Shown here: piece by piece, positions 1 to 64,000 of the stretch
Layout of the letters: every line of letters starts with the position of its first letter
How positions within the stretch are numbered: the stretch's first letter is position 1
Assembly: GCA_036172245.1 (NCBI GenBank)
Contig: JAYWIR010000053.1
Location: 1 to 64,000 of the forward strand
Direction of reading: 5' to 3'
DNA: 64,000 bases
Origin: Raillietiella orientalis
Taxonomy: Eukaryota
Notes under the pieces: model-generated
What the model saw: the letters and a program-made list of their open reading frames with translations, nothing else
Database searches by the model: none
What the model was told of the DNA's origin: nothing
Position numbers and translations under genes: made by a program

Positions 1-763
1 GACCATCCGCAGCAGGGTCAGTACGTTGAGGTCATCTGCAAACATACAGAGCTGGCATAACTACTGCTTAAAACTCCCGTTGTGATGGATCGCTCAGGCT
101 TCTCCCCACTACGGCGGATCGCAGCATGGTGGTCCACCTGTTAGGCGTAACCGCGCGAATGCGCAAAGAACAGGTTCGCGCCGCTCTGGAACAGTTCGGA
201 ACGGTCCACGCGCAATGGACGAAAGTTAGTCCTTTCGAAGACTACACGGGGCTGCAACAGGGGATCACAGCTGCGCGCGTGACCGTTCGAGAGGGCTGCA
301 TTTTTCCCCACAATCAGGTGGTCGAAGGCGAAACCGTCGACCACTATTATGTGGGGAATCCGAAATAATGTGGCTTCTGCAATAGGTAGGGCCACGTCAA
401 AAAGCGGTGTTTTGACGTACAGTACCAAGTATGCGGCACAATGGGCCACACGAGGGAAATGTGCTTAAAAGCAGCAGTGCGGGTGGTTTCCAAGAGAAAC
501 CTTAAAAAACGCGCCCGGCTTCTGCAGAAATGGCTGGCGGGGAAAGCTGCCGCGAAGCCTGTACCACCCGTGCCCAAGGCCCAAGCCGCACCTGTGACCC
601 CGGTGACCAACGCTAAAAAAGTTGAGGGAGCCGGTCAGGAGACTGGGTGGCAATTGGCAATGGCCAAAAATTTAAAGAAGGAGACGAGATTAGATAAAAA
701 CTACGCCTCCCGATTGAAAAAACAGCAAGCAAGCGAGGAGATAAAAAAATGCAGCGTTGTCGT
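1..763 (+). pseudogene. A2 ORF1 (gag-like, two degenerate CCHC knuckles), central part
   Basis: VVHLLGVTARMRKEQVRAALEQFGTV is nearly identical to A1 ORF1. CGFCNR*GHVKKRC and YQVCGTMGHTREMC are present. In-frame stops. Confidence 0.9.
755..763 (+). repeat. TSD of element G, CGTTGTCGT (second copy at 32753-32761)
   Basis: Identical 9-mer on both sides, and the host ORF1 frame is continuous across it. Confidence 0.8.
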
Positions 764-962
764 TTATTTCTTAGATGCGTTGGGACGTTTATTCATAATC
801 TCAACTGGAAACTTAGGCTAGGAGAACAGAAAATGGGGTGTAGATTTCCCGGAACGCAATCCGCGTACACTGAGAGTTCGGAACTGCAGGGGGTGGGACA
901 ACAAATAAATAAATTGAGTGGGAGGGCGGGGATAGAGGTATACAGTCTAATCGTTCCTGTTC

Positions 963-3144
963 TTAGAACCGGCGGTGAAAGCCGCCGATATCCGTCCTCA
1001 CTTCTGCTCCCAGGTGTGGCCACCAGGCAGCCATTCGCAGGTTGCAGGCTGCGGTGTCGGGGACCGATGTTGAAACTGCTCGCATCTGCAATACGTGACA
1101 GGCACTGACAATGACGCGGACGCAGCAGATGATTGCGAAGAACGCTCCAAGAGAAAGACCGTCACGCGTGTAGAAGCGGCGCATCCAATCGAGTGCGGTG
1201 TGTCCGGGGTTCACCAGCGGTGAAGACAGCTGCCCCCACAGATCCTGGAGGGCAGAGCACTCAAACAGCAAATGCGGAAGCGATTCCACCTTTCAGCATT
1301 GGGCACAGTTCGGAGAAGCAACTCCCCCGGAAATCAGGTGCACCCGCAGGTTGCAGTACAAACCCCAATGCACCAGCAGAAAAGCATCCTGTTTCCACCG
1401 AAGGGGGAAGAGAGTCGCGTCCCAACACGCAGAAGGGAACAGAAGTTCATCGTTGGGCACCCCGAGGAGCTCACTCCACCGCAGAAGTCCCTTGGCACGA
1501 AGGCGAGGTGTGGCAGCGTCTGCTACTTCGCAAGTCCGCCAGCCGCTTAGCAGTCGGGTTTCGCCTGCGATTTTGCTAGTGATCTCTCACCTCGGCGGCA
1601 GGTCACTGTCATCTCGCACCATCAGTGCATACAGTGCCTCGTCGAGTGGCGTAGCGGCTAGGCGTGTCCACAGGTCCTGGTCTTGCAGCACCTGCCCCAC
1701 TGGACAGTATCGGGAAAGTTTCACGCATCGGAGTTCCAATAGCGACACATCCTGTTGCGCTGCCCAGGACGATTAGGCTTCCTGCCTCCAGGCGTTGAAG
1801 TTCGTCGGTTGGGAGGAGAACGACTCATGCTTTCCCAGAAGCGTGGCGAGCTGCTTCAAAGAAGAGGCGAATCCTCTCTGGGCGCGCTCCGTGCGCAGAT
1901 GCAACGAACGTAGTCCAGAGCTGCGCACAGAGTGCCAGCATGCGGAAATGCACTAGCAGTCCGATCCGCACCAGCGTCAGGATGCCCAATCCTGCATCCC
2001 GCCGAGGAGCCGCCAAGTCCTTCAGGTGTATACTGCACCTCGCCGGTCCCCACAGGGCGTTCCGCAACAAACGTTGCGCCCGGGGCTTAGCCATGTAGAT
2101 TGGGGGACATACACAAAAGAGAGGACGGAGGAGGAAGGCAACGAAAATGTACCACACGAAGGTCCGTTCCGACAGGAGAAACCTGCCACCATGGAACGGG
2201 CTCAGTGCAGTCTGCGCCTTGTGAAGGCAGTCCAAACACGCTTTTGCTGAACAGAAGGCGCTTAAGGAAAAGCCAAGGTACTTTATGCCCCTGCCCGTGA
2301 AAATCCCCAGGGGGATCCTGTCGGACTGCTTCTTCCACGTAGAGCCAACCGGTACAACGGTTGATTTCGTCCTGTTGACGCTCAGGACCGCTCCCCGACG
2401 AATGAGCTCGAAGAAATCCTCGAGCCTGGACGCCGGGGAAGACATGTGCCGCAGTAGGAGAAGGTCGTCAGCATAGGCGTTCACGGCTGGTGATCCCGGG
2501 CAGGAGCTCGGCAGGTTGGTCCGCGTCAGCCTGTACGCCCTCAGCACCAACTCAAAGAAGATGCTGAAGAGCAGGGGGACTAAGCTGTATCCCTGCCTGA
2601 TTCCCCGCCGTATGAGAATGCCGTACACGTGGCGCCCGCTGGAAGAGATACAGCACAAAGCTAGGCGCCTGCAGGAACGCAATTAGGCGATGAGGTGCGT
2701 CGGGAGGCCTAGGCGTCCCAGAAGCTCCACAAGTAGGTCCTGGTTAACGCTCTCGTACGCTTTGCAGAGATCGACGGCGACCGCTAAGGCTCCCGGCGTT
2801 CCATCGTGCCTTGAACACCGCCGCTTTCCTTTGGTAGCGGCGATTTCGGCTGCCTAGCTCTGCTGCGTCACGCGCTGCTGCAACTCGAAGCATGTTCGCG
2901 CGAAGAAGAGATTCGCGTCCATGGACCGCCCCGGAACAGCATACGTCTGCTCCGGACTTACCAAGGTCTCTCCGATTCTCCCCAGGCGCGCGACTTATAG
3001 CTTGGAGAACAGCTTGACGTCCGAATTCACCAAGGTGATCGAACGCCAGTTGCAGAGGTGGCGCAAATCACCGCCTTTCGGCAGGAGTTGCACCTTTGCT
3101 GAGCGGAAAGAAGCGGGAACATCTCCCGTCCCACGCATCAGCGA
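963..3144 (-). pseudogene. G ORF2: RT and C-terminal zinc finger
   Basis: GIRQGYSLVPLLF, YADD, KYLG and C..C...ESLPHLLFEC are present, with several stops and frameshifts. Confidence 0.9.
3133..3144 (+). repeat. TSD of element F, ACGCATCAGCGA (second copy at 18429-18440)
   Basis: Identical 12-mer. Host G reads LSLSSLMR|GTGDVPASFRSAKV across it. Confidence 0.92.
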
Positions 3145-3228
3145 CGGTCGCGTACGGACGTTCTTTTGCGTTGCTGCGCAGTATATTGGCTCTTGTGTGT
3201 TTCTGTTCTGCTGTGCTTCTGTGCTGCA

Positions 3229-4628
3229 ATGAGAGCAAAGAAAAATATCAGCCGCAAGAAGGAAACTTCACCTGCTCCTGAGATGGCTGCTTCGGCTGCT
3301 AGCAAGGAGCCTCTGTCCTCGCCGACGGCGAGCACATTCACCCAGGTCCCTGCCCTCGTGGCTACGATGGGACCTTCGCCCGACAGACTTTAGCTTTAGG
3401 CGTATGTAGCAAATTGCTACACGCCTGCACTCAGGTATAAGGTAAGTATTTTTATGCCTGAGCGGGTTGGGCGCCAGTTTGGCCAGGAACTCCAACGGAT
3501 TGGAGTTCAAAAAGGCCAACTGGACTCCATCATGCCCATGAGTGGCTGCGGCTACTAAGAGGTGTCCAGTAAGCACGCTCTCCTTACGCAGCGTTTGCTG
3601 CACACGCCGCTGCTAATTCGTGGGCAGGTAATACTCCCTGTCACAACTGATCAGTCGTTCGTTGTCCGGCTCAGTGGAGTGTGTAAGGGTCCTTCGGACC
3701 GCCAGGTCGTGGAGGCCCTTTAAAAATTCGCTACCGTCCACGCGCTTTGGAGGTTGCCAAACCCTGCTGCAGGGTTCGAAGACCACCACAGCGGGCTCGC
3801 GCAAGTGCGAGTGACGATGACGGATCGCCGTGCAATGCCCACGCGACTGCAGGTATGTGGAATGACTGTGCGCCCGTGGTTTGCCGGGCAAACGCGTGTA
3901 TGCGCGGAATGCGGGCAGAAGGGTCACCGCATCACGAAGTGTCCCTCGGCCGCTTGCCGCTACTGCCACGAGCACGGGCACACTAAATGAACGTTCTCAG
4001 AGCTTTTTTTAAAAAACGAAAAGCGCACGAACCAATCGCGTTCCGCATTGCGGAATAATCGCCGCTAATCGAGAGAAAGAAACATCAAAGCTTCGAAAAG
4101 CGTTGCGAAAACCGCGACCACGCACGTTGAGAAAACTGCTTCTCGCCACCACAAAGAAGGGGTGAAAAGCACAAAAAAACTCGTCGCCACAAAGCCTCTG
4201 GCTATCGACCCGAAGGAAGCTCGCGAAGAATGCGAACTTTCTACAAGACCTCGCAGCTAAATGTTAAATGCAGGAGACATTGTGCCAGAGGTCAAAAAGC
4301 CTTCTACTGTCGCCATCACGACCGCGAAGCCTCGTACCAAGGCCTCGACGAGCGGCGCGGAATGCGGTCGTTCGCCCGATACAGGAAAAACGCGCCCGCG
4401 AGCAAAGAACACCGCGCCGTCTGAAGCAACGGCGGCCAAGGTGCCCCAGGAACCGAGTGCCGCGAAGAAACAGCCGGCAAACCCGCAGTCCTCGCGCGCG
4501 GACGCAGCGCCTACTGCGGCCAAGGAAGAAACTGCTACGGTGAGCACAGCCGATACAGCAGGGCCCCCAACGGTCGCAAAGCCAACGCGCGAACCCTCCG
4601 ATCTGGAAGAGGCAGCGCCTCTCGCGAT
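3229..4628 (+). pseudogene. F ORF1, N-terminal part
   Basis: CAECGQKGHRITKC and CRYCHEHGHTK knuckles, similar to C ORF1. Stops and frameshifts. Start codon uncertain. Confidence 0.8.
4619..4628 (+). repeat. TSD of element B, CTCTCGCGAT (second copy at 10253-10262)
   Basis: Identical 10-mer. F ORF1 reads EEAAPLAI|PKGVAYAC in frame across it. Confidence 0.85.
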
Positions 4629-4769
4629 AGATAAGTTTCCCCAAGTCCCACAAAGGGTGGAGTAAGTTTATTTTTCTATAAAAATACAATATTTACATTC
4701 GCACTCTCATTCACTCAATACAAACATTTTGCACTTAAGGGTCCTTGCGTTGCACTAGAGTTCTGCTTT

Positions 4770-7700
4770 TCAGGGGGGAATTCCAGCTGGATGGTCCCGG
4801 GCGTCGTCCTCGATCCTCTTCAGGATGAATCGGTACGTCCAGGCGTGGATCTTCCCGCAGTTCCTGATGCCGATTTCCCTCTTCAAGAGCCCTTGTAGGA
4901 TCTCCATCGGTGGTGCGGCTCTACTGGCTTTCCTCATTTTCCACCACCGCACAAGTATGGTGGTGATGAAGAGGGCTATGGTCGTCCTCACCATTAGATT
5001 GTAACATGGAACATTACCATCCCCATGAAACATCCCGGCGAGGTTCTCCACAACGGACTTGTTAATAAGTCCTATGATCCTTTTCAGGATCAGCCAGTAA
5101 TGCAGCACTGTGGGACACGTCAAGACGTGAAGTCTCGTCTCGTCGTCTCCACATGCTGCGCAGTCTCGGTCTTCCCGCCTTCCTGTGAAGAGCTGCAATC
5201 GGGACCCACTCTGGATTCCTCCGTGATAAAACATCAGGAGGTCATCCTGGGTGCCCGGCGGAAGGTCACTCCTCCAGAGCGTCGTGCCGATCGCTAACAG
5301 GTTGAACCGTTCACTCCCGTAGCGTTCGGTGGCTTCCTGGAGGGCACTGGTGTCAGGGTCGTTTTCTTGGATAAGCCTTCGGAGGTTTGTTCTGGTTACC
5401 CTCGACCATGCGAACTCGTTGTGGTTGAACCACACTTCGCGGGTCCTGTGAGTAAACCTTCCTAACATCATCTCTCTATACGGAAGTATACGAGTTTGAT
5501 GTAGGTAACCTCCTCGCCTCCACTCCTGGATTTGCAGTAGGGTAACTCTGGACCGCTGGTAGATCCAGCTTCTCGTGTCCGGCGGGACAGGAAGCATCCA
5601 AGGGATCACCAGGATGGACTCGTCCTGCCAGAGTTCCCTGCTTTGCGGCACGATCTTGATTTGGTGCTTCCCCACCAGCCGTTGCTTCCTCCTCCAGGTC
5701 GGGTCGATTGTTATCCATTCCCCGACTTTGCCTAGCAGCGCAGTCATCAGGCCTTTCGAGTTGTTAAGCAACAAAGCGAAGGCCCTGTGCGCCGCATGCG
5801 GCCAGTCATCCCAGTGAGTGGTAATGTCCAGGATGTGTCGCATATCCATGATTTCCATGGAATGTGCAAGCGACTTCTTCCCGGAACCGCCTTCTTCCCT
5901 GGGACGACACAGGGGTTCCAGTCTTACTCTTGGGCGATAGTGGCCCCAGAGTGTTTTTCTTTGCAGCTTGTCGAACTCCCTAGTAGTGTCCTTGTTCATC
6001 CTCTCAAAGGCCGCCCCGAAGAGCACTTTCGGAAGGAGTACTTCGTTCCATATGCTGGCCTTTCGCTTCATCCCAAGGTCCGTTCGGGTGTACTTGGCTG
6101 CTTCCTTGTCCGTTTTCCCCAGGATTTCCTTCCACAGCAGCTTCGACGTAGAGTCGTCGCCGATGTAGACTCCCAGGTACTTGGCCGTGTCCACCGTACG
6201 GAATCCACTACTTGTTAGAGTGGAGAGGTTCAGGATTCCGAAGGGCAAAAGCTGGCTCTTCTGGGAATTGATTTTTAAGCCCAAGCCCTGTTCCATCAAG
6301 CCCATCACATCCAGAAACGCACGCTGATTTTTCTCTCCCTTGATGAAGAAGAGTAGATCATCGACGTATGCCAGATAAGTAAGACGCTGGCCATGGATGG
6401 TAATCCCGCTGAGTCGTCCGCTCTTCTCGATAAAGGACGACAACGCCTCCATATAGATGACGAACAGCATCGGACTTAGCGAGTCGCCCTGTCGGACTTC
6501 TCGTTCCATCCTGATTGCTGCCGTCTCCTGGCCGTTGACCTTGATCCGGCAGTACTGGTTCTGGAGTACCGCCCTCACGAAGTTGCTGAAGTGTTTCGGA
6601 AGCCCTAGCTTCTCCAGAACCTTCAGCAGCATCCCGTGGTCGATGGAGTCGAAAGTTTTCTCCATGTCAGTGAACACGAGCACCAGGTTCTCGCCGACGT
6701 ATCGACAGGGTCCGACGGTGGCCTGGGAACACTTGACATTGTCCGACATGTGACGTCCAGGGACTGCACACGTTTGGACCGGAGAGATGAGCCTCGACAT
6801 GACCTTGCCTAAGCGGTTGGACCAGATCTTCGCCAACCACTTGGCATCGGAATTTAGGATCGAGATTGGCCTCCATTGGGCGATCTGGGTAGAGTCGCCT
6901 CCTTTCGGCAGCAATCTCATCCGACTCTCGTAGAAGGACTGAGGTAGCCTGCCTTCTTCCCGGATGCAGAGGGTCAACTGGTGGAACAAGCGCAGGTAGG
7001 CGTGCAGGTACCGCTGATAGTGCGTGATGGGTACACTGTCAGGGCCCGCTGCCACGTCCTTGCGATGTTGCCCAAACGCTGTCTTCACTACTTCTGCGGA
7101 GAACTCCTTCTCGAATCTGTTCCGCTGGAGGTCGTCGGTCCCCTTCTCGAGGTAGCTCAATAAGGCCTGTTGACTAGAGCGACACAGCTGTTGTCGCCTG
7201 AAGTGTTTCGTGTAATGCCTTTGAAAGGCATCCACGATGTCCTCAGACGACTGTCGCTTTTGGCCGTAATACTGGATGCAGAAGATATCTGTTGCCAGCT
7301 TTCTCTTCTCCAGCACGCCGACTTCCCCTTTTATGTTATTGAGGACTTGCCGACTCTCGTACTGATAAAAGTACTTTGAAAGGGAGCGATCTTGGATGTT
7401 CAGCTCCCGGTACGCCTCTTGCCTCAAGCGCCTATCTTCGAACTGCATGTTCGCAAACAGGTGTATCCTGTGTTTCAGGCTGTCCCAGTCGGCGACTCTT
7501 CGGATTGTTGTTGCCTTCAGAATCGCCTCCAGGACAGCCTGATGTCCGGGATGGGTTTCGAGCCAGGCGGGCATGCTGATGAGCGCCGCTCTGGTGCCTT
7601 GCCTCCGCCGAGGATTCTCCGTTCTTAGGGATAACCGCACCAGGGGGTGATCGGACACCGTAGTCATAGTGTCGCGAAACCCCTGGATGCGGTTCCCAAG

Positions 7701-8289
7701 TTCGGTGCTGTGCAGGACGTGATCGATCGGCTTGTGGCTTGCTGTTCGCCAGACCAGTCCGAACTCGTCGGATAGCCGTCGATACGCCGTCCTTCCTCTG
7801 GCGTCTTCTGAATGAATGATCTCATCCAAGATGTTGAGATCCCCAGCAACAATCACGACGTCCTTAGGAGCGACCTTTTGCAGGAGTGCTGCATGCAGCG
7901 CCTCCGCACAACGAAGTTTAAGCCTATGCGGCCCGTACACGTTCAATAGTATAAGGTGAACAGTTTCGGACCAAGGCCAGTCGGACGCCGATGGTTCGTC
8001 CGGGTTGGGGACAGAACACTTCCAGAATAGTGGGGGCTAAGTGGTTCTTTATTAGCACCGCCACACCCATCGTGTTCCGTTCTCCCTCGCTGACGAAAAT
8101 CTGCACGATGAATCGCCGTTCCATTTGCTGGCCGATCTCGAGACCCATCCTGTGGGTCTCCTGCAGGCACACGATGTCTTGTTGTGCGATGGTCCGCACA
8201 ATCCTTCTTCTTTTTCTCTGGTCGATCACACCGTTTACGTTCCAGGATTCGATGTTCAGCCTCCTGGCGGTCGATAGGGAAGAGGTCAT
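4770..8289 (-). pseudogene. B ORF2: AP-endonuclease, RT and zinc finger; nearly intact, one frameshift near 7945
   Basis: SWNVNG, CLQETH, NVYGP, AGDLN, IDH, SDH, WRPISILN, QGDSLSP, YVDD, KYLG and CAAC...HVLTC; a 1058-aa open stretch. Confidence 0.93.
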
Positions 8290-10105
8290 AATAGGGGAAG
8301 ACCTTCTTGGCCTTCCTGAGCTTCTTCTGTCTGGGAGAGCGTGCTCTTCCAGACGTCGAAGAAGCAGCGGGCTTCTCGCTGCCGGCGTCACTCTCCGCAC
8401 CTGTGAGGTCGGTAATTTCCGCCTCCTCCGTGGAGTGTTCCGCCCGCGCGATTAATTTCCGAGATAGCGCCTCTATCTCGACCTTGGCGCAGAAGTTCGC
8501 CTTCACGTCGAGAAGCTGTTCCTCTAACTTCTCGCGTTCAGCGAACTCCACAACCTGGTTGATGTTCTGTTGTGCAGTGCAGATCTTCTGCAAGATTTTC
8601 TCTTGCTGAGGACCGCTCTGCACCTCCATGATCTCCTCCGCCAGTGTTGCCAACTCCTCCGTGGTCTGCAGAGCCTCCTGCGACACTTTTGTGGCTTCCT
8701 GTCTCTCTTCCTTCGCGCCTTCCTGCGCTACCTCCACCTTCTCGCCTTACTGCTCTGCTGCTTCCAGGATTTGAGGAGTTCCTTGCTTCTTGACGAGCAT
8801 CCTCCTCTTTCCTTTCTTTCCCACTTCTATAAAGCCGTCCGCCGACACAGGAACGGCTTCTTTCACCTTCTTCGGCCTTCCTGCCTTCTGAGGTTGTTCG
8901 GCCTCCTTGATGTTTCTCTCTCTCACGGGGGAGAGACCTCGAATCCTTCTGCAGTTTTCAAAATCCGGACAGCTTCATTTCGCATGTCCGTGTTTCTTGC
9001 AGAAGGAGCACACCTCCGGCTGCGGGCAGTTTCGGACTTGATGTCCTACTTCGCCGCAGCGAAAGCAGCGGCAAGTTTTGCAAGCGCTGGCCCTGTGGCC
9101 GAACTGCTTGCACCCGGTGCAGAATACCGGTTGTTGCCGGTAACGCACATTCACTCTCTGGGATTGTTCGTCAATAACGGCCAATCCAGGGATCACCGCT
9201 CCTTCCCTCAACTTCATCTTGGCGATCATGTCGCCAGAAAATATGTTTCCAGAGAAGTTCTGGAAATCAAGGTCCAGAACTTCCCCAAACTGCTCCAAGT
9301 AATCCCACATCGCTAGTTGCGGTTTGAGGATGGAGATGCCGTTTAAAAAGACGGTTGTGTATGGCATCTCGCCAATACCACAAACCATCCGTCCTTGTAT
9401 ATTGATCCCCTTCTGGATCAATCGCTCTCTAATGTTTTCACAGTCTGTAAAGACTGTGAACCCGTTGTTCGATGGAATGATCGCCTGAATGCGCTCAAAG
9501 TCTATGTCCGTCTTGTCGAGGGACAAATAGACCTCCCTGATGTTATTAAATTTTATTAGCCCAGTATTGTAGATAATGGGCTTCACGTTGGGGCCTATTT
9601 CGACTATTGGTCGGTCCACTTTTAGAACTTTAACGCTAAGTCGCTTACCAAATTTCCTAGGTGGGTGGACACTCGCCTGTCCAGCCGCCACCGACGCATA
9701 GGAAAAGGGCTGCGACGCCGTAGCCGAACAAGATGGCGTCGCTCCCTGCACCGCGTGGACGCCCGCGGGTCCCGCCTAGGACGCCGTCGCCGCGGGCGCA
9801 AACCTCGACGTTGCCGCCGTTACCGCCGCGGGCGGCACCCTCGGCATCGCCGCCGCCGGCGCAGCAAAGCCCGCCGCGGGCGCGATCATCGGCATGCCTG
9901 CCGCCACCTCGCCGTTGCCGCACGTTACCTCCATGGCTTCCATGGGGGGCGATGGCCTCACCACTCCTCCAACTCCAGATGCCTGCATCCTGGCAGCTGT
10001 TCCGGCTCCTCTAGACGACTGCAGGACTTTTACCGTGGACTTCTCGGCGGTGCTGCTGCTGCAGCTGAAGGTCCCCGTTTGCTTTCTTTCCACACTGGCG
10101 TTCAC
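8288..10105 (-). pseudogene. B ORF1: Ala/Pro-rich N-terminus, RRM-like core, three CCHC knuckles, Glu/Gln-rich probable coiled coil
   Basis: One frame broken by stops at 9776, 8975 and about 8747. Knuckles CTGCKQFGHRASAC, CFRCGEVGHQVRNC and CSFCKKHGHAK*SC. Both ends uncertain. Confidence 0.85.
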
Positions 10106-10252
10106 TCAAACACTTGCCCTCTCAGGGCACTCAGAAATTGCCTTGGCAGTGGTTTTAAACACTGCCTTGGCGGGGTATCGGGTATAGTTTTAAACTAGCA
10201 ATAATCACGCCTCCCTTTCGTTCAGCGGCGGCGATACCGCCCGTGCGCAAGG

Positions 10253-10975
10253 CTCTCGCGATCCCTAAAGGAGTTGCTTACGCCTGCGTGGAGGCAGAAC
10301 TCCAAGAGGCAGCAAAGGCAACGCCTTTTACATCTGTGGAAGCAAAGCTATCTCAGGATTGCAAAGATAACTGCGACGCGAAGGAAGAAGGCTGGATGCA
10401 GGTGAGAAAGATCATTAGAAAGAAACCATCAAGGTTTTCGCAGCTCTGTGTGAAGGTGAGTGAGCGAAAGAAACCCGCGAAACCTTCCTAAGAAAAAGAT
10501 TACGATTCTTTCCTCCTGCGCAGTCGTCCTCTCGCGGATGGAGCGGGAAGCTGCTGCTGCGGCTAAAAGGACGAAAGTCCCAGCCGTAGTAGCAGAAAGC
10601 GCTAAGAAACAGGCAGCGAACGATTTCCCTAATTCCGGGAAACAGCAGCAGCTCCTGGCAAGCCCTCGACTGTCGGATTCTTATCCAGAGGCCGACAGAA
10701 ATAGCACACAGCGCGACAATCGCTCGAAAGCGCGCAATCGCCTCACGAAGACCCGCAAGCGCGTTGTTGCCGAGGAGGAATCGTTGCTGGGGAGGAAAAA
10801 AGAGGAAAAGGACCTCGCCTCTGAGCTACCGGCAACAAGCAGTGCAGCCTCGAATGGAGATGTCCAGTCTCCGAGATCGACCGCTCTGTCTCGTGACCAC
10901 TCGCCGGACAAGACGAGAAATCTGTGCTCACCTTCCCAGCCTTGATGCAGGTAGTCGCCTCTTTTCGTCGATTAA
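10253..10975 (+). pseudogene. F ORF1 C-terminal part and first codons of F ORF2
   Basis: Ends SPSQP* with a TGATG overlap at 10943-10947, followed by MQVVASFRRL (compare MPGIASRRRL in A2). Confidence 0.8.
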
Positions 10976-11004
10976 TAAACGCCGTCTGAGGGTAAGGGAA
11001 GGGT

Positions 11005-50700: not shown

Positions 50701-51372
50701 AGTTACCAACCGGCGAGGTGGGAGGTTTCCTGCACGATAGCGGGAAGAACCAAACTTCTTGGCACCTGGAAGACAAGTGAGTTGGCGGACGCCGCCACTC
50801 CTCGTATTACTGCAAAGGGACTCCTCCGGTGGGCAGAAGAACTTGCTGTCACCCCCGAAGAACTTGTAGTCCCTCCACAGTGTATGGACAGTTCGCTGCT
50901 CCCCCTTGCTTGGAAACAAGCCGTGCTGCTTTCCGTTCACTGGGGTTTTCAGTGCAACGAGCGTTGGCATCGTGACTCCGGGGGACTTGCGTCTGCGAAC
51001 TGCGTTCGGTGCGGATCGACGGAGTCGATTCCGCACCTACTTCTGGACTGCGGTGTCCTACAAGGACTGTGACGTAGGCTGGCAACAGCACTATTGCATC
51101 CCGTGGACACCGCAAGAGACTTGCTGCGACGATTCTTCAGGCCGAGCGGGCTTTCACTAAGCGCAAGGATTCCAACCATCGGTTGCATACGCGCGATAGT
51201 CTCCGTCCGCCAGGCGTTGGTAATCAACGGACAGCACCAAGAGGTAATCAGCAAAGCATCCTTCTACATGGGAGCATCCGCTAGATGGCCTCATTTGACA
51301 GAGGAGACAAAGAGGAATCTCGCCGCAATACACCGCCGGTTTACACACCCTCATCAGCGGCCAACCCCGTGA
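47780..51372 (+). pseudogene. Right C ORF2
   Basis: All endonuclease, RT and finger motifs; stops at 48020 and 51070, frameshift near 48848. Confidence 0.94.
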
Positions 51373-51685
51373 TCATTGACCTACCCTCCATAAACTAAAT
51401 TTGTATTTTCTTTTTACACCCGCGTCCCCATAGGCTCCGGAACATTTTAGGTGCTCATTGTATAAATCCCCGTGAGTACGGAGCCTAACCAAACACCCGT
51501 TACCCTTCCCTACAGTTTTTGATTTTTGTTTGGTTCCATTCATTCCCCCCACGCTGCGAGCGGTTTGTTTTCCAAGCCTGCGTGCCGGTAATTTTTCTAT
51601 GTTCTCGGTCGTTCTCTTGGTTGGGGACATTGTCCCTGACCAGTTTATTATTATTAATAAACGCCCCGGCGTGACCGGGTGATAA

Positions 51686-54600: not shown

Positions 54601-54820
54601 GCAGCCAGCCGCAGTTCTTGCAGCCTTGTGCTGCGTCCGAGGCATCGTGGCGGCATGGAGCGACACCAACAAGGAAGGAGTTGGTCAACACGCGAGGGAT
54701 GTCATCCCATATGCCCAACGCTTCTTGCGAAGAGCTGCCGGATGGCCCCAACTGGGGAATATGCAGACTGACCTCGAGGTCTTCGTTCGACGGATGGGCC
54801 CTCTCGACAGCGACCAGTGA
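51686..54820 (+). pseudogene. D1 ORF2 remainder
   Basis: SDH, WRPITILN, DLLKAFD, YADD and KYLG, with stops and frameshifts. Confidence 0.93.
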
Positions 54821-55045
54821 TCCCTTCCCTGCCCTCCAACTTCTTTTTGTCTGTTTCTTTTTATTTTACTTTTTGTCTTATGCCCATCCCCCTTCGCTGT
54901 CGGGGAGTGCCACGCCGGGCTGCGTCCCGGTGTCCCGACAGGTCCTGTGTTTAGGGCCGTGGTGGGGCCTTGTACCACGCATGTAAAGTTTAATAATAAA
55001 CGCCCCGGGCGTACCCGGGTGATAACGCCGAATCCCTTGGTGAGT

Positions 55046-55052
55046 GGACGTG
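55046..55052 (+). promoter_or_regulatory. DPE-like 5' motif GGACGTG (representative copy)
   Basis: Recurs close to the 5' end at 3156, 16335, 28100, 30534, 32740, 37899, 43380 and 45813 (single-base variants at 3156 and 32740). Function is inferred. Confidence 0.6.
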
Positions 55053-55131
55053 TGTTTCCTTCGCTCCCGAGTGAGTCGACAGGAAGCGGTTTTTTCTATT
55101 GTTGTTTGGTGTGGAACATCGTTGGTGTCCG

Positions 55132-56889
55132 ATGCCAGCGATGCCTGAGGACACCACGATGGAGGTAGGTGTGGGGGAGGCTTGCCCACCCCCACAGCCT
55201 ACCGAATCAGGGGCGTCCGCCCCGGAATCGCCCTCGCCGCTTAAGGCGAGGAGCTGGAGCGCCATGGTGGCCGCGCCGAGCGCGGAAACCATGGCCGAGA
55301 TGGCGTCCTACCTGGCAGCTGGGTACAAGCCCAGCTTGGTTTACCAGGTAGGCAATCTCTTTGACGGGCGAACTGCACGCGCTTTTTCGAAAGCGCTGCA
55401 GAACGCCAACGTGTTGGAAAAGGACCTTGACGGTCTATCCGTGCTCAGCGGGGGTGAGCGCGTCGAGGTTGTCTGCAAGGACATCACCTTGGCGCAAAGC
55501 TTGATAACCACCCCGCTGAACGTGGACGGACGCAAGATCCTACCAGTCACGATGGACCGCTCCGTAGTGGTCCATCTGACAGGGATCACCAGCCGCAAGA
55601 CGCGGTCTACGGTTGGTGATCAGTTAATAAAGTACGGGGATGTTCACGCGCTTTGGCCAAAGGCCACAATCTTCGATGGCTACGATAGCCTTTTCGGAGG
55701 GCAGGCCGCCGCGCGCGTGACGGTGAAGGAGAGTGGGCTTCCCCACAAACTAGAGGTCAATGGCGAAGTCGTAGACCTCTGGTACGTGGGGAAACCCCGC
55801 ATTTGAGGCTACTGCAATGCAGTAGGACACTTGCGCAAGCGGTGCCCGAACGTTGTGTGCCACTTATGCGGGGAGAAGGGCCACGTACGCCGCGTATGCC
55901 CTAAACGCCCCACTCCGGTGCCGTCTGCTGCAAAGAAAGCACAGGCAAAATGCGGTAAACTGGTCGAAAGACCAAAAAGAGATACTGGCCGGCAGCAGCC
56001 GCTGGCCCCTGTTCCTCCCACACAGGCGTCGGAAGAACAACCCTCCGAAGACGCGGGAGTCCAAGACGACTGGCAGTTGGTCAACGCCAGGAAGGAGAGA
56101 AAGGTGCACTTCGCGGAACCCGCGAAAGCGGTAAAAAAGACAGCCGGCAAGGCGAACAAACCTGGACCGCCCTCTAAGACCATGCAGGAGTGTACGGTAG
56201 CACTGGAGCGCATAGCCGTTCCCTAGATTGCCACCCGGGGCGACGAGCCTTCCCTCGCCGTTTCCGCCGCGCCCGCGGTTCGCGACGGCGAACAATCTGT
56301 TTACACAGAGGGTGAGCCGCGCGAAATAGCGACGGTCGAAGCCGAGGACGCCGCGTTCGCTCAGGCGGCGGAGGAGCTCGCGGCCACGCTGGCGGAGCGT
56401 GAGAACCCCTCGCGCAAGGCCGTGCGAAGGCCGGCTCCCGCGAAAAAGGCCCCCACAGGTCAGTCGGACCTGGCGGCCGGAAGTGCATCCTCCTCCTCGG
56501 AGGTACCCCCCAGGAAGTCGGGACGCAAGTCCCAGAAACCCAGGAGGCGCCTCCCCTCCACCAGCGAGGAGGAGAAGTAGGAAGCTAGCGGTAGCGTGGG
56601 AATCCCGGAGGGGGAACTCCCATTCTCGGAAGTCGTCGAGCCGGCCACCCCCATGGAGGAGGGTGAGCAGGGGGGCGAAGTCCTCCCTGCAGTCGCCGAG
56701 CCTGAACAGCCCGCCCCCATGGAGGAGGGCCAACAGGTAGGCGCGACCCCACCTAAGGGTGACCCGCTCGACGCGCCGTTACCCATGGAGGAGGGGGACC
56801 AGGTGCACGCAGCGCCTGACCCTCCTCCTCCACCTAGCGTCCCACCCCAACATGTGGCGGACGCCGCATCGCCATCTTCCCAGGAATAA
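55132..56889 (+). pseudogene. D2 ORF1
   Basis: Stop at 55804 in the first knuckle; CHLCGEKGHVRRVC; frameshifted tail with three PMEEG repeats. Confidence 0.9.
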
Positions 56890-59800
56890 CACCTGGGCTC
56901 GCCAGTCGCAGTCGGATTCGCGCCGCCTGTTGGAACGTCAACGGGCTGCGCGACGACGGTAACAGGCGAGATACGGCCGATAACCTGCGTGAGCTCGACC
57001 TGGCCCTGCTGCAGGAGATCCACGTGGTCACCGCGGCAGACGCCCAGAAAATCGAGGCGATCGCGGGGGGTCGGCTGTATTGGCGGTGCGGCCTCCGCAA
57101 CACCTGCGGGGTCGCGTTCTTAGTGAAGCCGGCCATCGACGCGGCCGTGAAGGGCGTGCGCTTCGATGACGACGGTCGGGACGGTCAGCTGATTCTCAGC
57201 TGGTCCGACTCGATCGAATTTATCGTCACGAATGTGTACGCCCCCAGCGGTAAACAGGGATACAGCGACCGTACCAGGCTGCTGGATTCCCTGAAGCGCG
57301 ACTGGCTGGCGGACACGAACGAGCGGAAGGCTCACCTGATAGCGGGAGATTTCAATCTCCGTCTGCTAACAGGTGAGCCAGAAACACAAGAGAACGCGAT
57401 GAACAAGTTGTGCGCCGCCATGCGTGCGCGCAACTTGTTCGCGGGAGAGAGGGGAATGGTCCGCAGCATCGACCACGTCTTCCTCGACGCTGACCTGTGT
57501 TCACGGGTCGGCAAACGGGGGAGGGTTGCGTCGACGTTGTCGGACCATTCCCGGTTAATTTTCGAGATGCGGTCTCGTGACAAGGGACCTCCATCCAGGG
57601 ATTGGCGTCTGCCGGGGGACTGGACGCGACTCTCAGGTGCGAAGGAATACCTTCGCGAATACCCGAGAGGTGTCACGCTCCGGAATCTCCAGGACTGGGA
57701 CCTTTTTAAAAAATCGGTCCGCGAGTTCTGTGAGCAGTTCCCCCTGGATCCCCTGCCCCTTGGATTCGGCGAGGGTGCTCGCAACCATCGGGCCTATTTA
57801 CAGGCTCGCAGGTACGACAGAACCCCTAATGTCCGTCGCCAGGCCGAGTACCGCCCCGGGGCCGAAAGCCAAGCCTGGCAATCCGGGTCGGCCAGCTTGC
57901 TGGACGACCAGAGCCGGGAATGTTCGTCTTTGGCGTCGGTACGGCATCTCTTGCGGAGTTTTTATTCCTCCCTTTACGCCCAGGAGCCCCCGGATCGAAA
58001 CGCCTCTCGACGCTTGCTTCCGGATGGCACCCCGGCAATAGGGGAGGAGGAGATGGAAAGCCTCGACGAGCCTTTTACCACCGGCGAAATTCTCGCCGGT
58101 ATCAAAAGGCTCAAGAGGCGTAAAGCTCCAGGGGAAGACGGCTTGCCCGCGGAGTTCTTTCAGAGCTTCGCGGAAGAGCTGGCACCCCTGCTGCTTAAGT
58201 TGATCAGGCTGATCCGAGAGGAAGGCGATGTTCCCGCCTCGTTTCGGTCAGCCAGAGTGAGGCTCCTTCCGAAAGGGGGAGACCTCAGGGATTTAAAGCA
58301 CTGGCGTCCGATCACAATCGTGAATACGGACGCCAAGTTGATCGCAGGGCTATGGGCTTCGCGTCTGGGGCAGGTGGCAGAATCCGTAATTAGCCCGGAG
58401 CAGACTTATGCTGTTTCCGGGCGAAGTATGGATGCCAACCTCTTCTTCGCAAGCACATGGGTGCACCTGCAGAGAAGAGAGAAGAAAGGGATAGGGAAAG
58501 TCGGCAACCCCACATTGGGGCCGCCAGCCGGGCTGGGAAGGGACTACCGGGCGGGGAAGGGGGCCCTAGCGCTCGCAGTCGATCTCCACAAGGCTTTCGA
58601 CTGTGTAGACCAGGAACTTCTCTTGGAGCTCCTGGGTCGCATGGGCTATCCCCCCTCCCTGATTTCCTACCTGCGCTCTTGCAGGCGGAATGCGATAATT
58701 ACCGTCTCTTTCAGCGGTCAAAAGGTGTATGGCGTGCCGGTGCGGCGGGGCTTAAGGCAGGGAGATAGCCTCAGCCCCCTGCTCTTCAGCACCTACTTTG
58801 AGTTGGTGCTAAGAGCGTACAGGGTGACTTTGGCCCCATTGCCGAGCTCGTGCCCCGGCACGCCCGCCGTAGCACCGTACGCCGACGATCTTCTGCTTTT
58901 GTTGCCAATGTCCACCCCGGCAAAGGCGGTCGGAGACTTCTTCGATCTGCTAAGCCGCGGGACCGGACTGCAGGTTAACAGGGCGAAGTTCTCGGTTGTG
59001 CCAATAGGTGCGGCGTGGGCAGGGCAGCAGGACTGGGTCCGTCTGGGGATCCCCACGGCGAGGTGCTTCAAGTACCTTGGTGTGCCGTTGGGGCACTACT
59101 CCCCTGCGGAAGCGTGGTCCAGCTGCCTCCAAAAAGTCGAGACGGCGATCGGCCCGTTCCTGGAAGGCAAGTTTCACTTGCCGGTACGGGCCGCGGTTTG
59201 GAACGCCTTCGCGGCCCCCATCCTCCGCCCCTTGCTTTTTGTTTGCCCCTAAACCGTGGAATCCAAGAAGAGGACGAAGGACCTCCTCCGTATCGCCCTT
59301 TGGGGCAAGGGGAGGCCCCGAGTCCCACTGAAGGACTTGTGCGCTCCGCGTCGGGACGGCGGTCTTGGCCTCCTGACGCTGGAGCGCGTTAAGAAGCAGC
59401 TGCGGAGCCGAACCCTCGCCATCGTAGCGAAGATGTGGAGCACCCCTTGGTGCACTCCAGCCCGCCTCCTGGCCAGCCGTGTGTCCCGGTGCGATGGACT
59501 CGCGTGTTTTCTTCTCAGCCGTGGCCGGAAGATGCGAAGATGCGGCCTACTGCTCGGGCGCATGGCAACATTGGCCAAGGAGAACAGCTGGGTGGTTTGC
59601 TGACCCGCCAACTCCCTCGCCTGGCTGGAGGAAAATATTGGAACGTGGGCAGTGGTTAACCAGACAAGCCACGAGACGTGGAATCGTCTTCGTTGCAGCC
59701 CCTACGCCCGCTGCACGCTGCGGAATATCCTGGAGAGTCCAGCAAGATGCATGTGGGCAGAGACGACCTGCCTAGCTACGGCCCTGCCCTCCCTGAAGAG

Positions 59801-60485
59801 GGCACTTCACAGCAGCCGGACGCCAAGGTGGCAAGTCTCCTGCTGCATCGAGGGACGCGAGAAGTTGATCAGCGGCTGGACAACAGGAGAACTGTCCGAC
59901 GCCACGACCCCGAGAGTCCAGCCGCGAGGATTAGTAAGATGGGGCGAGCTGCTCGCCATCCCCAGGGATGAGCTGAAGTGGCGCCCGGTGATGAAGGAAT
60001 CCAGGATCCTGTCCCTCAAGTGGCAAGAGTCGGCGTTGCTTTTGTTGCACTGGGGTCTACTCTGCAACGCGCGCCGCTTCCACTGGACGAGGGGAGCTGT
60101 GGATCCAGCGTGTGCCAGGTGAGGTGAGCGGGAGTCGCTTCCCCACCTTATTGTTGATTGTGCTGCCCTCCGACCCCTTTGGGAACGGTTCCGGACGACC
60201 CTCGGGCTCCCTACGGGCAGGACCCCCAGAGACGTTCTTCGGCCTTTCTTCGTGAAGGACGCACTGCAGCCAGCCGCAGCCATCGCAGCCTTGTGCTGCG
60301 TCCGTGGCATCGTGGGGGCATGGAGCGACGCCAACAACGAAGGAGTGGGTCCACAGGCGAGGGATATCATCCCGTATGCCAAACGCTTCTTGCGAAGATC
60401 TGTCGGATGGCCCCAACTGGGGAATATGCAGACTGACCTCGAGGGCTTCGTTCGAGGAATGAGCCCTCCCTACAGCGACCAGTGA
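56889..60485 (+). pseudogene. D2 ORF2, open from ACA at 56889 to 59252 (complete endonuclease and RT), then in-frame stops
   Basis: TPGLASRSRIRAACWNVNG, LQEIH, AGDFN, SIDH, SDH, DLHKAFD, YADD and KYLG. Confidence 0.94.
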
Positions 60486-60659
60486 TCCCTTCCCTGCCCT
60501 CCAACTTCTTTTTGTTTGTTTCTTTTTATTTTCCTTTTTGACTTATCCATATCTTCCTTCGCTGTCGGGGAGTGCCACGCCGGGCTGCGTCCCGGTGTCC
60601 CGACAGGTCCTGTGTTTACGGCCGTGGTGGGGCCTTGTACCACGCATGTAAAGTTTATT

Positions 60660-60690
60660 AATAAACGCCCCGGGCGTACCCGGGTGATAA
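60660..60690 (+). terminator. 3' end signal: AATAAA + CCCGGG-CGTA-CCCGGG hairpin + TGATAA (representative copy)
   Basis: Equivalent signals at 764-793, 18399, 18832-18862, 22206-22235, 37002, 38996-39025, 51656, 54995 and 61114. Confidence 0.7.
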
Positions 60691-61113
60691 CGCCGAAGCT
60701 CGGCGGAAGACGTTCCATGGGAAACTAGTCGCAAAACTCGCTGACTGAGCACTTCATTTCGTCCCAGTCCGCGAACGTATGAAGCTGGAATCCTCGCAGG
60801 AAGGAGCGTAGATGTTCCGCCGCTGCTGCGAGGCGCAACCAATCCCCTGGCAGGCGCCATGTTTTCAGGGGAGGGCCCTTATTGCACCGATGTAACTCGA
60901 GCACGAGCCGTGGATGGTCGGACAGTTCTGCCGGGAGCGTTCCTCGAGTTTCCACCCGCGTGGACAGGTGGTTGTCGAGGAACATGTGGTCGATGTTCCG
61001 ATCTCTCCCGGCATCACCGGCCAACAAGTTGCGCGCATTCATTGCTCCGCACAACTGGTTGACCAGCTGTGCTCGTCGGTTGGGCGCACCTGCCAGCAGG
61101 CGGAGATTGAAAT
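60691..61113 (-). pseudogene. E2 endonuclease C-terminal half (FN to RLPPSFG)
   Basis: FNLRLL, NIDH, SDH and DWDEMK; joins 43362 across the D array. Confidence 0.9.
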
Positions 61114-64000
61114 TTATCACCAGGACACGCCGAGGGGTTCATTAATAATAATAAACTGGTCAGGGACAATGCCCCCAGCCAATAAAACGACAGAGAACAT
61201 AGAAAAATTACCGGCACGCAGGCCTGGTAAACAAACCGCTCGCAGCGTGGGGGGAATGAGGGGAACCAAACAAATCAAAAACTGGAGGGAAGGGAAAAGG
61301 GTTTTTGGTTAGGCTCCGTACTCACGGGGATTTAAACGATGAGCACCTCAAATGTTCCGGAGCCCATGGGGACGCGGGTGTAAAAAGTAAATACAAAATT
61401 AGTTTATGGAGGGTAGGGCAATGATCACCGGGTTGGCCGCTGCTGAGGGTGTGTAAACCGGCGGTGTATTGCGGCGAGATTCCTTTTTGTCTCCTCTGTC
61501 AAATGAGGCCATCTAGCGCATGCTCCCATGTAGAAGGATGCTTTGCTGATTACCTCTTGGTGCTGTCCGCTGATTACCAACGCCAGGCGGACGGAAACTA
61601 TCGCGCGTATGCAACCGATGGTTGCAATCCTTGCGCTTAGTGACAGCCCGCTCGGGGTGAAGAATCGTCGCAGCAAGTCTCTTGCGGTGTCCACGGGATG
61701 CATTAGTGCTGTTGCCAGCCTACGCCACAGTCCTTGTAGGACACCGCAGTCCAGAAGTAGGTGCGGAATCGACTCCGTCGATCCGCACCGAACGCAGTTC
61801 GCAGACGCAAGTCCCCCGGAGTCACGATGCCAACGCTCGTTGCACTGAAAACCCCAGTGAACGAAAAGCAGCACGGCTTGTTTCCAAGCAAGGGGGAGCA
61901 GCGAACTGTCAATACACTGTGGAGGGACTACAAGTTCTTCGGAGGTGACAGCAAGTTCTTCTGCCCACCGGAGGAGTCCCTTTGCAGTAACACGAGGAGT
62001 GGCGGCGTCCGCCAACTCACTGGTCTTCCAGGCGCCAAGGATTTTGGTTTTTCCCGCTATCGTGCAGAAAACCTCCCACCTCGTCGGCTGGTAACTGTCG
62101 TTTCTTGCCCTGAGGGCAGACAGCGCTGCGGCAAGAGGCGTGGCAGCCAGGGTAGAAAACTTCACCTCGTCCTGCAGTACTTCTTCCAAGGATCGTGGAA
62201 AAAATTGACGCAGGGGGCGAAGATCTCCAGGGCGTATTCCTTGGAAAGCCGCCCAGGATTCAACAGACTCCTGCGCCGAGCTTCAAAGTTCATTGGGCGG
62301 CAGGAGTTCCACGAGTAAGCTTCCAGAAGTGCGGTCAACTGCCGCAATGGAAACCCGAAACCCCGCTTCCTGTATTGAGTGCCCGGCAAAAGCGAGAGAA
62401 ATCCTCCGCTGCCGGCGCATCTCCGCAGGAGAATGCGAGCTGGCACACACAGGGGGGATCTCCATAGCTGGGCACACAGTGCCAGCAGTCGGAACTGCAC
62501 CTGCAGTCCGGTTCGCTCCATTATCAGGATACCCAAACCAGCATCCCGACGCCGAGCTGACAAATCTTTAAGGCGGATCCTCGATCTCGCCGGACCCCAG
62601 ACAGGGTTCCTGAGCAGGCGTTTAGCCCGCTGTTTTGCCGCATAGGGGGGGTCCAAAACAAAAAACAGGAGACGGAGGAGAGGGGCCACAAATGTGTTCC
62701 AAATAGTCGCCCGTTCCTGCAAGGTAAACTTGCCATTAAAGAACGGGCTGATGGCCAACTCTGCTTTCTGAAGACAGTCCGCCCACGCTTTGGCTGCGCC
62801 GAAAGCGCCCAACGGAACGCCAAGGTACTTAAAGTACCCGCCCTTGGGGATCCCCAGGCGGATCCAGTCGGACTGCCCCTTTAACGACGTACCCACAGGA
62901 ACGACCACGCTCTTCTCTCTGTTCACGCTCATGCCCGCTCCCCGACTAATCAGGTCGAAGAAATCCTCGACACTAGACGCCGGGGTGGACATGGGGAGCA
63001 GAAGAAGCAGGTCATCAGCGTAGGCGGCCACGGCAGGCGTTCCCGGGCAGGAGCTTGGCAAGTAAGACAGCGTCAGCCTGTATGCTCTTAGCACCAACTC
63101 AAAGAAGATGCTGAAGAGCAACGGGCTTAAGCTGTCGCCTTGTCGGATGCCCCTACGAACGGGAATACCATACACGCGGCAGCCGCTGAAAGTATTGCAG
63201 GTTAGCGCGTGCCGCCAGCACGCGCGCAAATACAGCAGGAGTTGCGCCGGGAACCCAAGGCGTTCCATAAACTTTAAAACGAGCTTCTGGTTTACGCAGT
63301 CGAACGCCTTGTGGAGATCGAACGCGACCGCCAAGGCACCTGGCGTTCCCTCCTGCCGTAGGCGCCTGTTCTTCTTGCCTGCGGCAGTGACTTTCGCAGC
63401 AGCCTGGCCTTGTTGCGCCACAACTTCCTGCAGCTGCAACCATGTGCGCGCGAAAAGGATGTTCGCTTCCATGGATCGTCCCGGAACGGCGTAGGTTTGT
63501 TCCGGGCTCACCGCAGATTCCGCGATACTTCCTAACCGCGCGACTCACAGCTTGGAAAACAACTTGACGTCCGAGTTCACCAAGGTGATCGGACGCCAGT
63601 TGTCAAGTTGACGCAAGTCTCCGCCTTACGGCAGGAGACGCACCTTCGCTTAGCTGAAGGAATCCGTGACATTCCCGGATTCACTCATCAGCGTCGCGAG
63701 TTTCAGCATCAATGGAATGAGCTTCACTGCAATGCACTGATAAAACTCTGCAGGGAGCCCATCCTCGCCCGGCGCCTTTCGTCCCTTCAGCCCAGCGATT
63801 GCGGACGAAAATTCATCCGCAGTGAAAGGCTCGTTGAGACGTTCGCGTTCCTCCTCGCCGACAACACGAGCATTCTGAGACAGGAGTATCTCAGAAAGAA
63901 TATCCTCCGTCGGGGATTCCGCGTACAGAGAGGAGTAGTAGCGTCTGACAATGCGGCGTACTTCGGCTGGGGCCGAACATTCCTGGCCCTTGTCGTCCAA
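61114..64000 (-). mobile_element. Element C (third copy), 3' 2.9 kb (ORF2 from 61425 upward), in sense at GDFN of E2; continues beyond the window
   Basis: Highly similar to the other C copies; its 3' end GTGATAA abuts ATTTCAATC at 61105-61113. Confidence 0.93.

Follow-up and report, generated by a model that had tools for sequence, protein, structure and literature searches.

Can families of long interspersed nuclear elements (LINEs) use one another as insertion targets? The question is raised by a stretch of DNA from Raillietiella orientalis (assembly GCA_036172245.1, contig JAYWIR010000053.1, positions 1 to 64,000 of the forward strand), the whole of which, 64 kb in length, is called the window here. 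A preliminary description, made from the letters alone, had seen in it a guild of L1/Tx1-like elements nested in each other. The nest is probably best explained by successive target-primed insertion of about ten L1/Tx1-type families into one another, with at least two of these families being sequence-specific. Two families, A and C, appear to behave as sequence-specific elements that target short motifs in conserved codons of open reading frame 2 (ORF2) of sister families, a reading that is well supported within the window. Family A corresponds to D of the preliminary description and family C to its C; the nestings that it called B in F, F in G, G in A2, D in J, and D in E2 are here K in E, E in H, the H unit in B', A in D1, and A in D2, respectively.

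Recurrent insertion at fixed nucleotides

Family C lies in sense orientation at the GDFN codons of the host endonuclease (EN), in two A copies and in the D element D2, which is about 67% identical to A over 430 nt. The 5' junction, between GGGAGATTTCAATC and GAGTGCGGACGTG, is the same in both complete C copies, and the 3' junction, between ..GATAA and ATTTCAATCTCCGCCTGC, is the same in all three (hosts A3, A2, and D2 in a four-way alignment). A 9-bp target-site duplication (TSD), ATTTCAATC, is seen twice for C in A, and the remaining A copy, A1, keeps the empty site, GGGAGATTTCAATCTCCGTCTGC.

Family A inserts in the opposite sense at the GFGEG codons, in D1 and in D2, each time with the 7-bp TSD CGCCGAA, and is found once more in tandem. 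All three A copies end in GGTGATAA directly followed by CG(C/T)CGAA, and CGCCGAA stands before the 5' end of each. The length of the duplication is thus constant for each family: 9 bp in both complete copies of C and 7 bp in three of three A copies, with one mismatch in A3. Copy A1 lies head to tail behind A2 with just CGCCGAA between them; the TSD regenerates the A site, so that tandem A-A arrays can form. In all, the six A and C copies of the window sit at these two LINE sites.

The hosts of these insertions are much more diverged than the inserts. The D1 and D2 flanks are 75.7% (1245/1645) and 78.8% (93/118) identical on the two sides, compared with 94.4% and 98.3% for the A pieces and 96.3% for the C copies between them. 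These values indicate that the same insert lies at the same nucleotide of two different D elements. In 100-nt windows, D flank identity ranges from 59 to 88%, with no increase as the junction is approached. With hosts so much less alike than their inserts, neither segmental duplication nor gene conversion accounts for the recurrence. For random insertion into a 5.7-kb host, a hit at the same nucleotide in the same orientation is expected at about 9e-5 per pair. The earlier observation that these two families recur at fixed nucleotides in different hosts therefore stands, with identical junctions in hosts that are 67-79% identical.

The C target is a 16-mer, GGAGATTTCAATCTCC, that encodes G-D-F-N-L of the APE-type endonuclease and is intact once in the window, in A1. 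It is a near-palindrome, with two mismatches against its other strand. Three of four sites with the 16-mer are occupied, as against none of six related sites with 4-6 mismatches (one-sided Fisher p=0.033, with counts that are small and not fully independent). In B, C itself, f11 (part of B'), f12 (element I), and K, the corresponding EN codons differ at 4-6 of the 16 positions and are empty; the GDFN site of C differs from its own target by three synonymous differences and one L/V change. Judged by these aligned sites, occupancy of the C target follows target sequence. For the A target the parallel is only partial. The D hosts carry GGATTCGGCGAAGG, and D1 and D2 are occupied; the sites of B, C, and f11, with at least three mismatches, are empty, and so are those of the three A copies, whose own site is one base off the target. 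With two mismatches allowed, the 16-mer and the 14-mer would be expected by chance about 0.03 and 0.8 times in 64 kb.

Structure of the nest

G+C content is 54-64% across the window, and long stop-to-stop frames crowd both strands. By Pfam, the long ORFs encode PF03372 (Exo_endo_phos, the APE-type endonuclease), N-terminal in ORF2 with E-values of 8e-14 in A and 5e-07 in K, followed by PF00078 (RVT_1), the reverse transcriptase (RT). The best solved relative of A-family ORF2 is human L1 ORF2p (E 1.9e-48), with R2 proteins at 1e-10 to 1e-14, and L1 EN structures match the window endonuclease at E of about 5e-07. ORF1 of K contains a zf-CCHC domain (E 2.8e-06); that of B matches it weakly (E 0.23-0.78), with two C-x2-C-x4-H-x4-C motifs visible in the translation, and ORF1 of C has no Pfam match. 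Close relatives are few in the collections searched. The protein collection yielded 13 matches to A ORF2, headed by an unnamed JGI protein at 71% identity, the best named relative being a Xenopus tropicalis RT at 25%; K had five matches, all at or below 26%. A protein atlas returned generic APE+RT clusters only for the window proteins. A metagenome scan with the ORF2 alignment found five distant loci at 25-41% identity, and one with the A/C 3' terminus pattern found none.

Six-frame tblastn with the window's own ORFs, together with profile hidden Markov models built from them, shows that ORF1, ORF2, or an untranslated region (UTR) of a LINE covers essentially every base. A tRNA scan of the window found none. 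The window is a LINE-only nest of APE+RT elements apart from one U4 small nuclear RNA (snRNA) sequence. The claim of a nest without host DNA thus holds for nearly all of the window, the full-length U4 snRNA at 10117-10254 being the sole non-LINE sequence; a 42-nt filler at 32706-32747 matches nothing else in the window. The pieces of the nest, assigned to about ten related families, are as follows.

1-762, forward: left part of B' (3' half of ORF1 and start of the leader); host of the H unit, with a TSD copy at 750-762; 89% identical to the ORF1 of B/f3
763-3144, reverse: 3' part of H (ORF2 amino acids [aa] ~458-1208 and 3' UTR); terminus ...AAGAAATAAA adjoins B' leader codons SVVV
3145-18428, forward: E, full-length, interrupted by K and B/f3; own pieces 3145-4628, 10253-~10990, and 16348-18428; inserted antisense in H at codons ...GDVP with the 12-bp TSD ACGCATCAGCGA
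4629-10252, reverse: K, member of a distant LINE family, located in the tail of E ORF1; 10-bp TSD CTCTCGCGAT
10117-10254, reverse: complete U4 snRNA (Rfam RF00015, 91.4 bits, model 1-138 of 138), the 5' end of the K insertion unit
10991-16347, reverse: B (f3), ORF1 and ORF2; 5' end (GGACGTG motif) adjoins E just before RT codons HKAFD; 3' UTR truncated
18429-18713, reverse: 5' remnant of H (ORF2 aa ~359-469), opening with the second copy of the E TSD
18714-18831, forward: left piece of D1 (ORF2 aa ~277-310), in inverted orientation to H; hosts A3
18832-30557, reverse: A3, full-length A copy interrupted by C1; antisense in D1 at the GFGEG codons
22206-28112, reverse: C1, full-length C copy; sense in A3 at the GDFN codons, TSD ATTTCAATC on both sides
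30558-32705, forward: right piece of D1 (ORF2 aa ~309-1025), followed by the 42-nt filler 32706-32747
32748-37031, forward: right part of B' (f11; leader, ORF2, and 3' UTR); terminus ...CCGGGTGAAAAA adjoins I at ORF2 aa ~290
37032-37894, reverse: I (f12), start of ORF2 to aa ~290; the outermost host seen
37895-38995, forward: G, 5' end (GGACGTG motif) and ORF1; host of f13
38996-40622, reverse: f13, ORF2 aa ~740 to the complete 3' terminus ...CCGGGTGAAAA; antisense in the G leader at PVVR
40623-43362, reverse: 3' piece of D2 (ORF2 aa ~309 to stop, with ~70 nt of truncated 3' UTR); host of A2/A1
43363-55025, forward: A2, full-length A copy interrupted by C2; antisense in D2 at the GFGEG codons and flanked by CGCCGAA
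45807-51685, forward: C2, full-length C copy; host A2 (GDFN codons), TSD ATTTCAATC / ATTGCAATC
55033-60690, forward: A1, A copy without an insert, following A2 in tandem across one CGCCGAA; contains the sole intact C target (57345-57360)
60691-61113, reverse: 5' piece of D2 (ORF2 aa ~171-311), between the 3' ends of A1 and C3
61114-64000, reverse: C3, third C copy, 3' half only (5' part beyond the window); sense in D2, at the nucleotide that C1 and C2 occupy in A

Several lines of evidence support the order of insertion. The TSD of K in E is at 4619-4628 and 10253-10262, where the host frame resumes, and that of E in H is at 3133 and 18429. The H unit (763-32747) in B' is flanked by a 13-bp TSD that matches at 12 of 13 positions (750-762, TGCAGCGTTGTCG; 32748-32760, TGCACCGTTGTCG), and rejoining B' across it gives ...KKCSVVVERMLDD..., like ...DRSVVVERFLD... 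of the intact relative B. With C in A and A in both D elements, TSD copies reproduce all six nestings that the preliminary description had based on TSDs. Single junctions were likewise confirmed as abutments: the complete 3' terminus of B' adjoins I at ORF2 aa ~290, G adjoins the ORF2 start of I with its complete 5' end, the 5' end of B/f3 meets E directly before HKAFD, C3 adjoins D2, and the complete 3' terminus of f13 meets the G leader at PVVR, at most 3 nt from the homologous site of H in B'. The 3' side of B/f3 in E is unclean. Only about 20 nt of B/f3 3' UTR remain at the E border and E lacks ORF2 aa ~30-573, which points to a deletion; a single later deletion is the simplest reading of this border.

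A second unclean border limits the depth of the nest. Only about 70 nt of D2 3' UTR remain where D2 meets f13 aa ~740, and, as at the 3' border of B/f3, the truncated 3' UTR means that this is not a clean target-primed junction. Template switching or recombination is as likely here as insertion. The meeting of the D2 end with f13 also creates a 1.43-kb direct repeat at 80% identity (39194-40622 and 40624-42055). Nesting had been described as up to six levels; five are seen from I outward to C2, and the sixth hinges on counting D2 in f13 as an insertion.

On the 5' side, H is joined to an inverted piece of another family (D1) and the 42-nt filler. Classical twin priming was considered for the inverted piece and rejected, as D1 overlaps H in ORF2 coordinates and belongs to a different family (about 66% identical). 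In an alternative parse, I (37032-37894) would supply the 5' part that H lacks, and D1 and f11 would form one chimeric insert, with a target deletion of about 207 bp. The parse with an H unit in B' is preferred because of the 12/13 TSD and the resumed frame.

The families were grouped by nucleotide identity over a 660-nt RT block. On this basis, the three A copies are 93-94% identical to one another, the three C copies 95-98%, and the two D copies 85%; B and f11 are 81% identical, E and H are closer to C, and K is an outlier at 41-47%. RT identity among the approximately ten families spans 41-85%. The ORF2 of K is open for 1088 aa and is 25-31% identical in amino acids to that of A over aligned stretches.

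All families except K have common termini. The 5' end reads GAG(Y)GGACGTG(Y)TTTTC, with a close variant in E; eight 5' ends have GGACGT(G/T)-YTTTC in common, and eight insertions keep complete 5' ends. The 11 complete 3' termini contain AATAAAC, a short hairpin, and an A-rich end, and run straight onto the target from GATAA, GAAAA, TCAAA, or ATAAA; the poly(A) tail typical of L1 proper is absent at all 11. Support for the hairpin is weak, with five predicted pairs and a single compensatory change. The 3' termini of C-type and A-type elements read AATAAACGCCCCGG..GATAA, with the 5' motif GAGYGGACGTG, and A2-A1 is the only same-family tandem pair in the window.

Further features concern ORF1 and the leader between the ORFs. 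A1 (55040-57348) is about 79% identical to A2 (43375-45797) and A3 (28114-30545) in its 5' third (5' UTR, ORF1, and leader) and 92.5% identical to them in its 3' part; this uneven identity suggests that families have swapped ORF1 and ORF2 modules. A 57-bp tandem repeat of about three copies lies between ORF1 and ORF2 in A3 (29075-29251) and A2 (44682-44844). In B/f3, the ORF1 frame (15225-16250, reverse) is followed, after a single stop, by a same-phase open frame of 207 aa (14601-15224, reverse), which contains SVVVER, the motif targeted by H and f13, and may be a read-through leader of ORF2. ORF1 of C (26112-28130, reverse; 45792-47780, forward) is open for 662-672 aa and ends in a Lys/Ser/Ala-rich tail of about 380 aa without a Pfam match; E carries a similar ORF1 tail, and it is there that K is inserted.

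Proposed mechanism and alternatives

Insertion by target priming, with a constant stagger at defined motifs, is directly shown. In the proposed mechanism, about ten L1/Tx1-type families would pile up by successive target-primed reverse transcription into one another. C would recognize GGAGATTTCAATCTCC and insert in sense orientation, with staggered nicks giving the 9-bp TSD: the first on the bottom strand, between GATTGAAAT and CTCC, and the second on the top strand, between ATTTCAATC and TCC, near-symmetric in the palindrome. A would recognize GGATTCGGCG/AAGG, the codons G-F-G-E-G between EN and RT, nick the host sense strand after GGATTCGGCG, and insert antisense with a 7-bp TSD. Further copies should then show ATTTCAATCTCC... 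3' of C-type termini and CGCCGAA... 3' of A-type termini. By analogy with R1 and Tx1, specificity most likely lies in the element's own APE endonuclease, and pairing of the RNA 3' end with the nicked target may help. GDFN presumably contains catalytic residues of L1-type endonucleases, in which case the C target is one that no functional host element could afford to lose.

The preliminary description also proposed that the sister families have diverged to target different conserved sites. For A and C this is borne out by recurrence, TSDs, the empty site, and the tandem; for the other approximately seven families, each with one insertion, site specificity is conjecture. The once-seen sites of E, B, H, f13, G, B', and K in conserved codons (GDVP, HKAFD, SVVVER) fit the same strategy without proving it. 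A wider guild, in which every family targets sister LINEs only, is plausible. The boldest version is tentative and more doubtful than probable: the sister families would form a closed ecosystem of obligate hyperparasites, each EN being specific for a 14-16-bp stretch that encodes a catalytic or structural motif (GDFN, GFGEG, GDVP, HKAFD, SVVVER) of the others. If that were true, a functional host could not easily mutate the target away and an arms race would be expected at synonymous sites, like the three at which the GDFN codons of C depart from its target, and LINE-only islands would grow by self-renewing targets and might act as centromere-like domains.

Contigs beyond the window provide at least two further joints. 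One run (X1), possibly the sample of origin, contains window DNA, and among its contig joints listed both terminus joints are LINE-in-LINE. At joint 52108/60690 (one contig, 39 nt on the shorter side), an A-type 3' end is joined on the opposite strand to GGATTCGGCG (...CCCGGATTCGGCG) at GFGEG of an A-like host. This is probably a further locus in the same genome and reads as the same A site in a further host type. At joint 45527/51685 (one contig, 32 nt on the shorter side), an A/C-type 3' terminus is joined, on opposite strands, to ...GGTCGGCTGT, the EN codons GGRLY of an A-like element. Two other runs, X2 (same sample) and X3, show only short low-complexity matches to the window, with AT-rich loose ends; the genome that carries the LINEs may be just one part of the sequenced material.

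Several points weigh against sequence-specific insertion into sister LINEs. The evidence consists of one 64-kb window and one contig joint, probably from the same sample. Joint 45527/51685 sits at another EN position, a third site absent from the window, so not every element with an A/C-type terminus uses the two sites. Whether A or C sequences are compared, A3(C1) groups with A2(C2). An A copy already carrying C may therefore have moved as a whole, and in that case only two C events would be independent. Some TSD copies are imperfect (CGTCGAA against CGCCGAA for A3; ATTGCAATC for C2). Finally, both copies whose ORF2 frame was checked contain in-frame stops, two in C1 and three in A1, and the ORF2 of K maps as two separate stretches, so that gene intactness gives no basis here for judging activity or EN specificity.

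The most durable alternative, which we nevertheless consider unlikely, is that A and C are sequence-specific without being restricted to LINEs. Their motifs of 14-16 bp would also be used elsewhere, or chromatin would attract them, and there would be no guild of mutual parasites. The recurrence comes from this window alone, and K, with its U4 head and its place in a low-complexity ORF1 tail, indicates that at least one family need not target LINE motifs; the A/C-type terminus at another EN position in the X1 contig points the same way. On the other hand, the low chance expectation of the two motifs implies that non-LINE copies would be rare in a typical genome, and six of six A and C copies in the window are at LINE sites.

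A second alternative, also unlikely in our judgment but a live one, is RNA-guided homing. After a chance founder insertion, read-through transcripts carrying downstream host sequence would pair with homologous LINE stretches and fix the priming site, so that fidelity to the site would come from the flank and the EN could be relaxed. Such pairing would suit junctions that are nucleotide-precise, targets that are homologous stretches of a multicopy family, and elements that lack poly(A) and have a defined terminus with the target directly after it; read-through target sequence is known to improve precise insertion of R1Bm and R2. It is at odds with the constant stagger of each family (9 bp in C, 7 bp in A) and with a C target that is nearly palindromic, features that point to protein recognition of both strands, and with the A2-A1 tandem junction, where the target is followed by the A1 5' end rather than by host sequence.

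The weakest alternative, and a very improbable one, is an ordinary pile-up of non-specific LINEs in a gene-free heterochromatic or centromeric island, with the repeated junctions due to segmental duplication, gene conversion, or misassembly: it can draw on an inverted repeat (18822-32229 and 55035-41705, 93% over 13.4 kb), several further repeats at 88-92%, rearranged junctions (truncated 3' UTRs, the inverted D1 piece, and the 1.43-kb direct repeat at 80%), and LINE-only centromeric clusters known from PMC8226300, PMC9940879, and PMC11288735, but the 93% is carried by the A(C) insert, with D flanks at 76-79% and no gradient toward the junction, C3 uses the same nucleotide in a host that shares 67% identity with A, and the perfect 9-bp TSDs, the empty site, and a random coincidence of about 9e-5 per pair all stand against it. 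Moreover, copy 1 and copy 2 diverge unevenly over three segments (1.7%, 3.7%, and 5.6%; chi-square p 1.6e-13), a poor fit to a single duplication that then decayed uniformly. An origin of the shared A(C) insert by gene conversion was rejected, given flank identity that does not rise near the junctions.

If sequence-specific targeting of sister LINEs were confirmed genome-wide, the conserved coding sequence of related retrotransposons would be a safe haven for retrotransposons. Such insertion would carry no cost to the host genome, disable competitors, and renew the element's own target supply. It would also offer a sequence-level mechanism for the origin of Zepp-like LINE-only islands, and would add naturally occurring APE-type endonucleases whose recognition sites are long and defined (one being palindromic), which bears on LINE EN specificity and on tools for site-directed insertion.

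Relation to known systems

The U4 head of K has a known counterpart. The full U4 snRNA heads the K LINE sequence at its 5' end, and one TSD (4619-4628, 10253-10262) encloses both. PMC4494074, citing Buzdin 2002 and Garcia-Perez 2007, attributes snRNA-L1 chimeric retrocopies (U6/L1 and others) and the snRNA-headed SINEU to template switching during reverse transcription. As described there, these chimeras resemble K in having a full snRNA fused 5' of LINE-derived sequence within one TSD; they differ in that K has U4 and an apparently full-length LINE part (ORF1 and ORF2). A template-switch chimera and read-through from a U4 gene targeted by K are equally open explanations, and K may stand outside the sister-LINE targeting scheme altogether.

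Two systems resemble the nest as a whole. The Zepp and ZeppL L1-type LINEs of green algae (Chlorella, Coccomyxa, and Chlamydomonas centromeres) form clusters, with other DNA scarce or absent, by insertion into existing LINE copies, as in the window, and PMC9940879 describes ZeppL clusters as putative centromeres. As described, Zepp is one self-inserting family whose arrays are mostly 5'-truncated 3' ends, whereas the window contains about ten diverged families, mostly as full-length copies, with defined codons, fixed TSDs, and no poly(A). Celine, a poplar LINE, is concentrated in centromeres, mostly in other transposable elements and sometimes nested in itself; in this respect it is similar, but each copy has a unique TSD, which PMC11288735 takes as regional targeting, in contrast to the identical TSDs of the window.

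Target-specific Tx1 elements offer a comparison of behavior. According to PMC4494074, Tx1-clade targets include Tx1D (Tx1L), U2 snRNA genes (Keno), microsatellites, and Mariner-N4_AMi (crocodilian Tx1-Mar), and Tx1-8_Crp and Tx1-4_AMi target 'specific groups of LTR retrotransposons' (LTR, long terminal repeat). Like the window elements, these are APE-type LINEs with sequence-specific insertion into multicopy targets that include other transposable elements. Since Tx1 families that target other transposons are already described in that source, the principle is not new. What appears to be new is the target: the described Tx1 targets are DNA transposons, LTR elements, snRNA genes, and microsatellites, whereas those in the window are conserved coding motifs of sister LINE families that arose in the same radiation, several levels deep. 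The preliminary description knew of no such case, and the literature search, with Repbase Reports and subscription journals outside its coverage, likewise found no account of LINE families targeting sister-LINE coding motifs, the closest being Zepp self-nesting and the Tx1 families that target transposons.

The rDNA-specific LINEs R1 and R2 provide a contrast in how a target is maintained. These elements insert at one exact nucleotide with a fixed TSD or short deletion, have a defined 3' end without long poly(A), and regenerate or re-use their target. The window elements share the exact site, the fixed TSD, the lack of long poly(A), and the renewal of the target. The R1/R2 target, however, is a host rRNA gene kept by host selection, whereas in the window any maintenance of the target would come from selection on catalytic motifs in other parasites.

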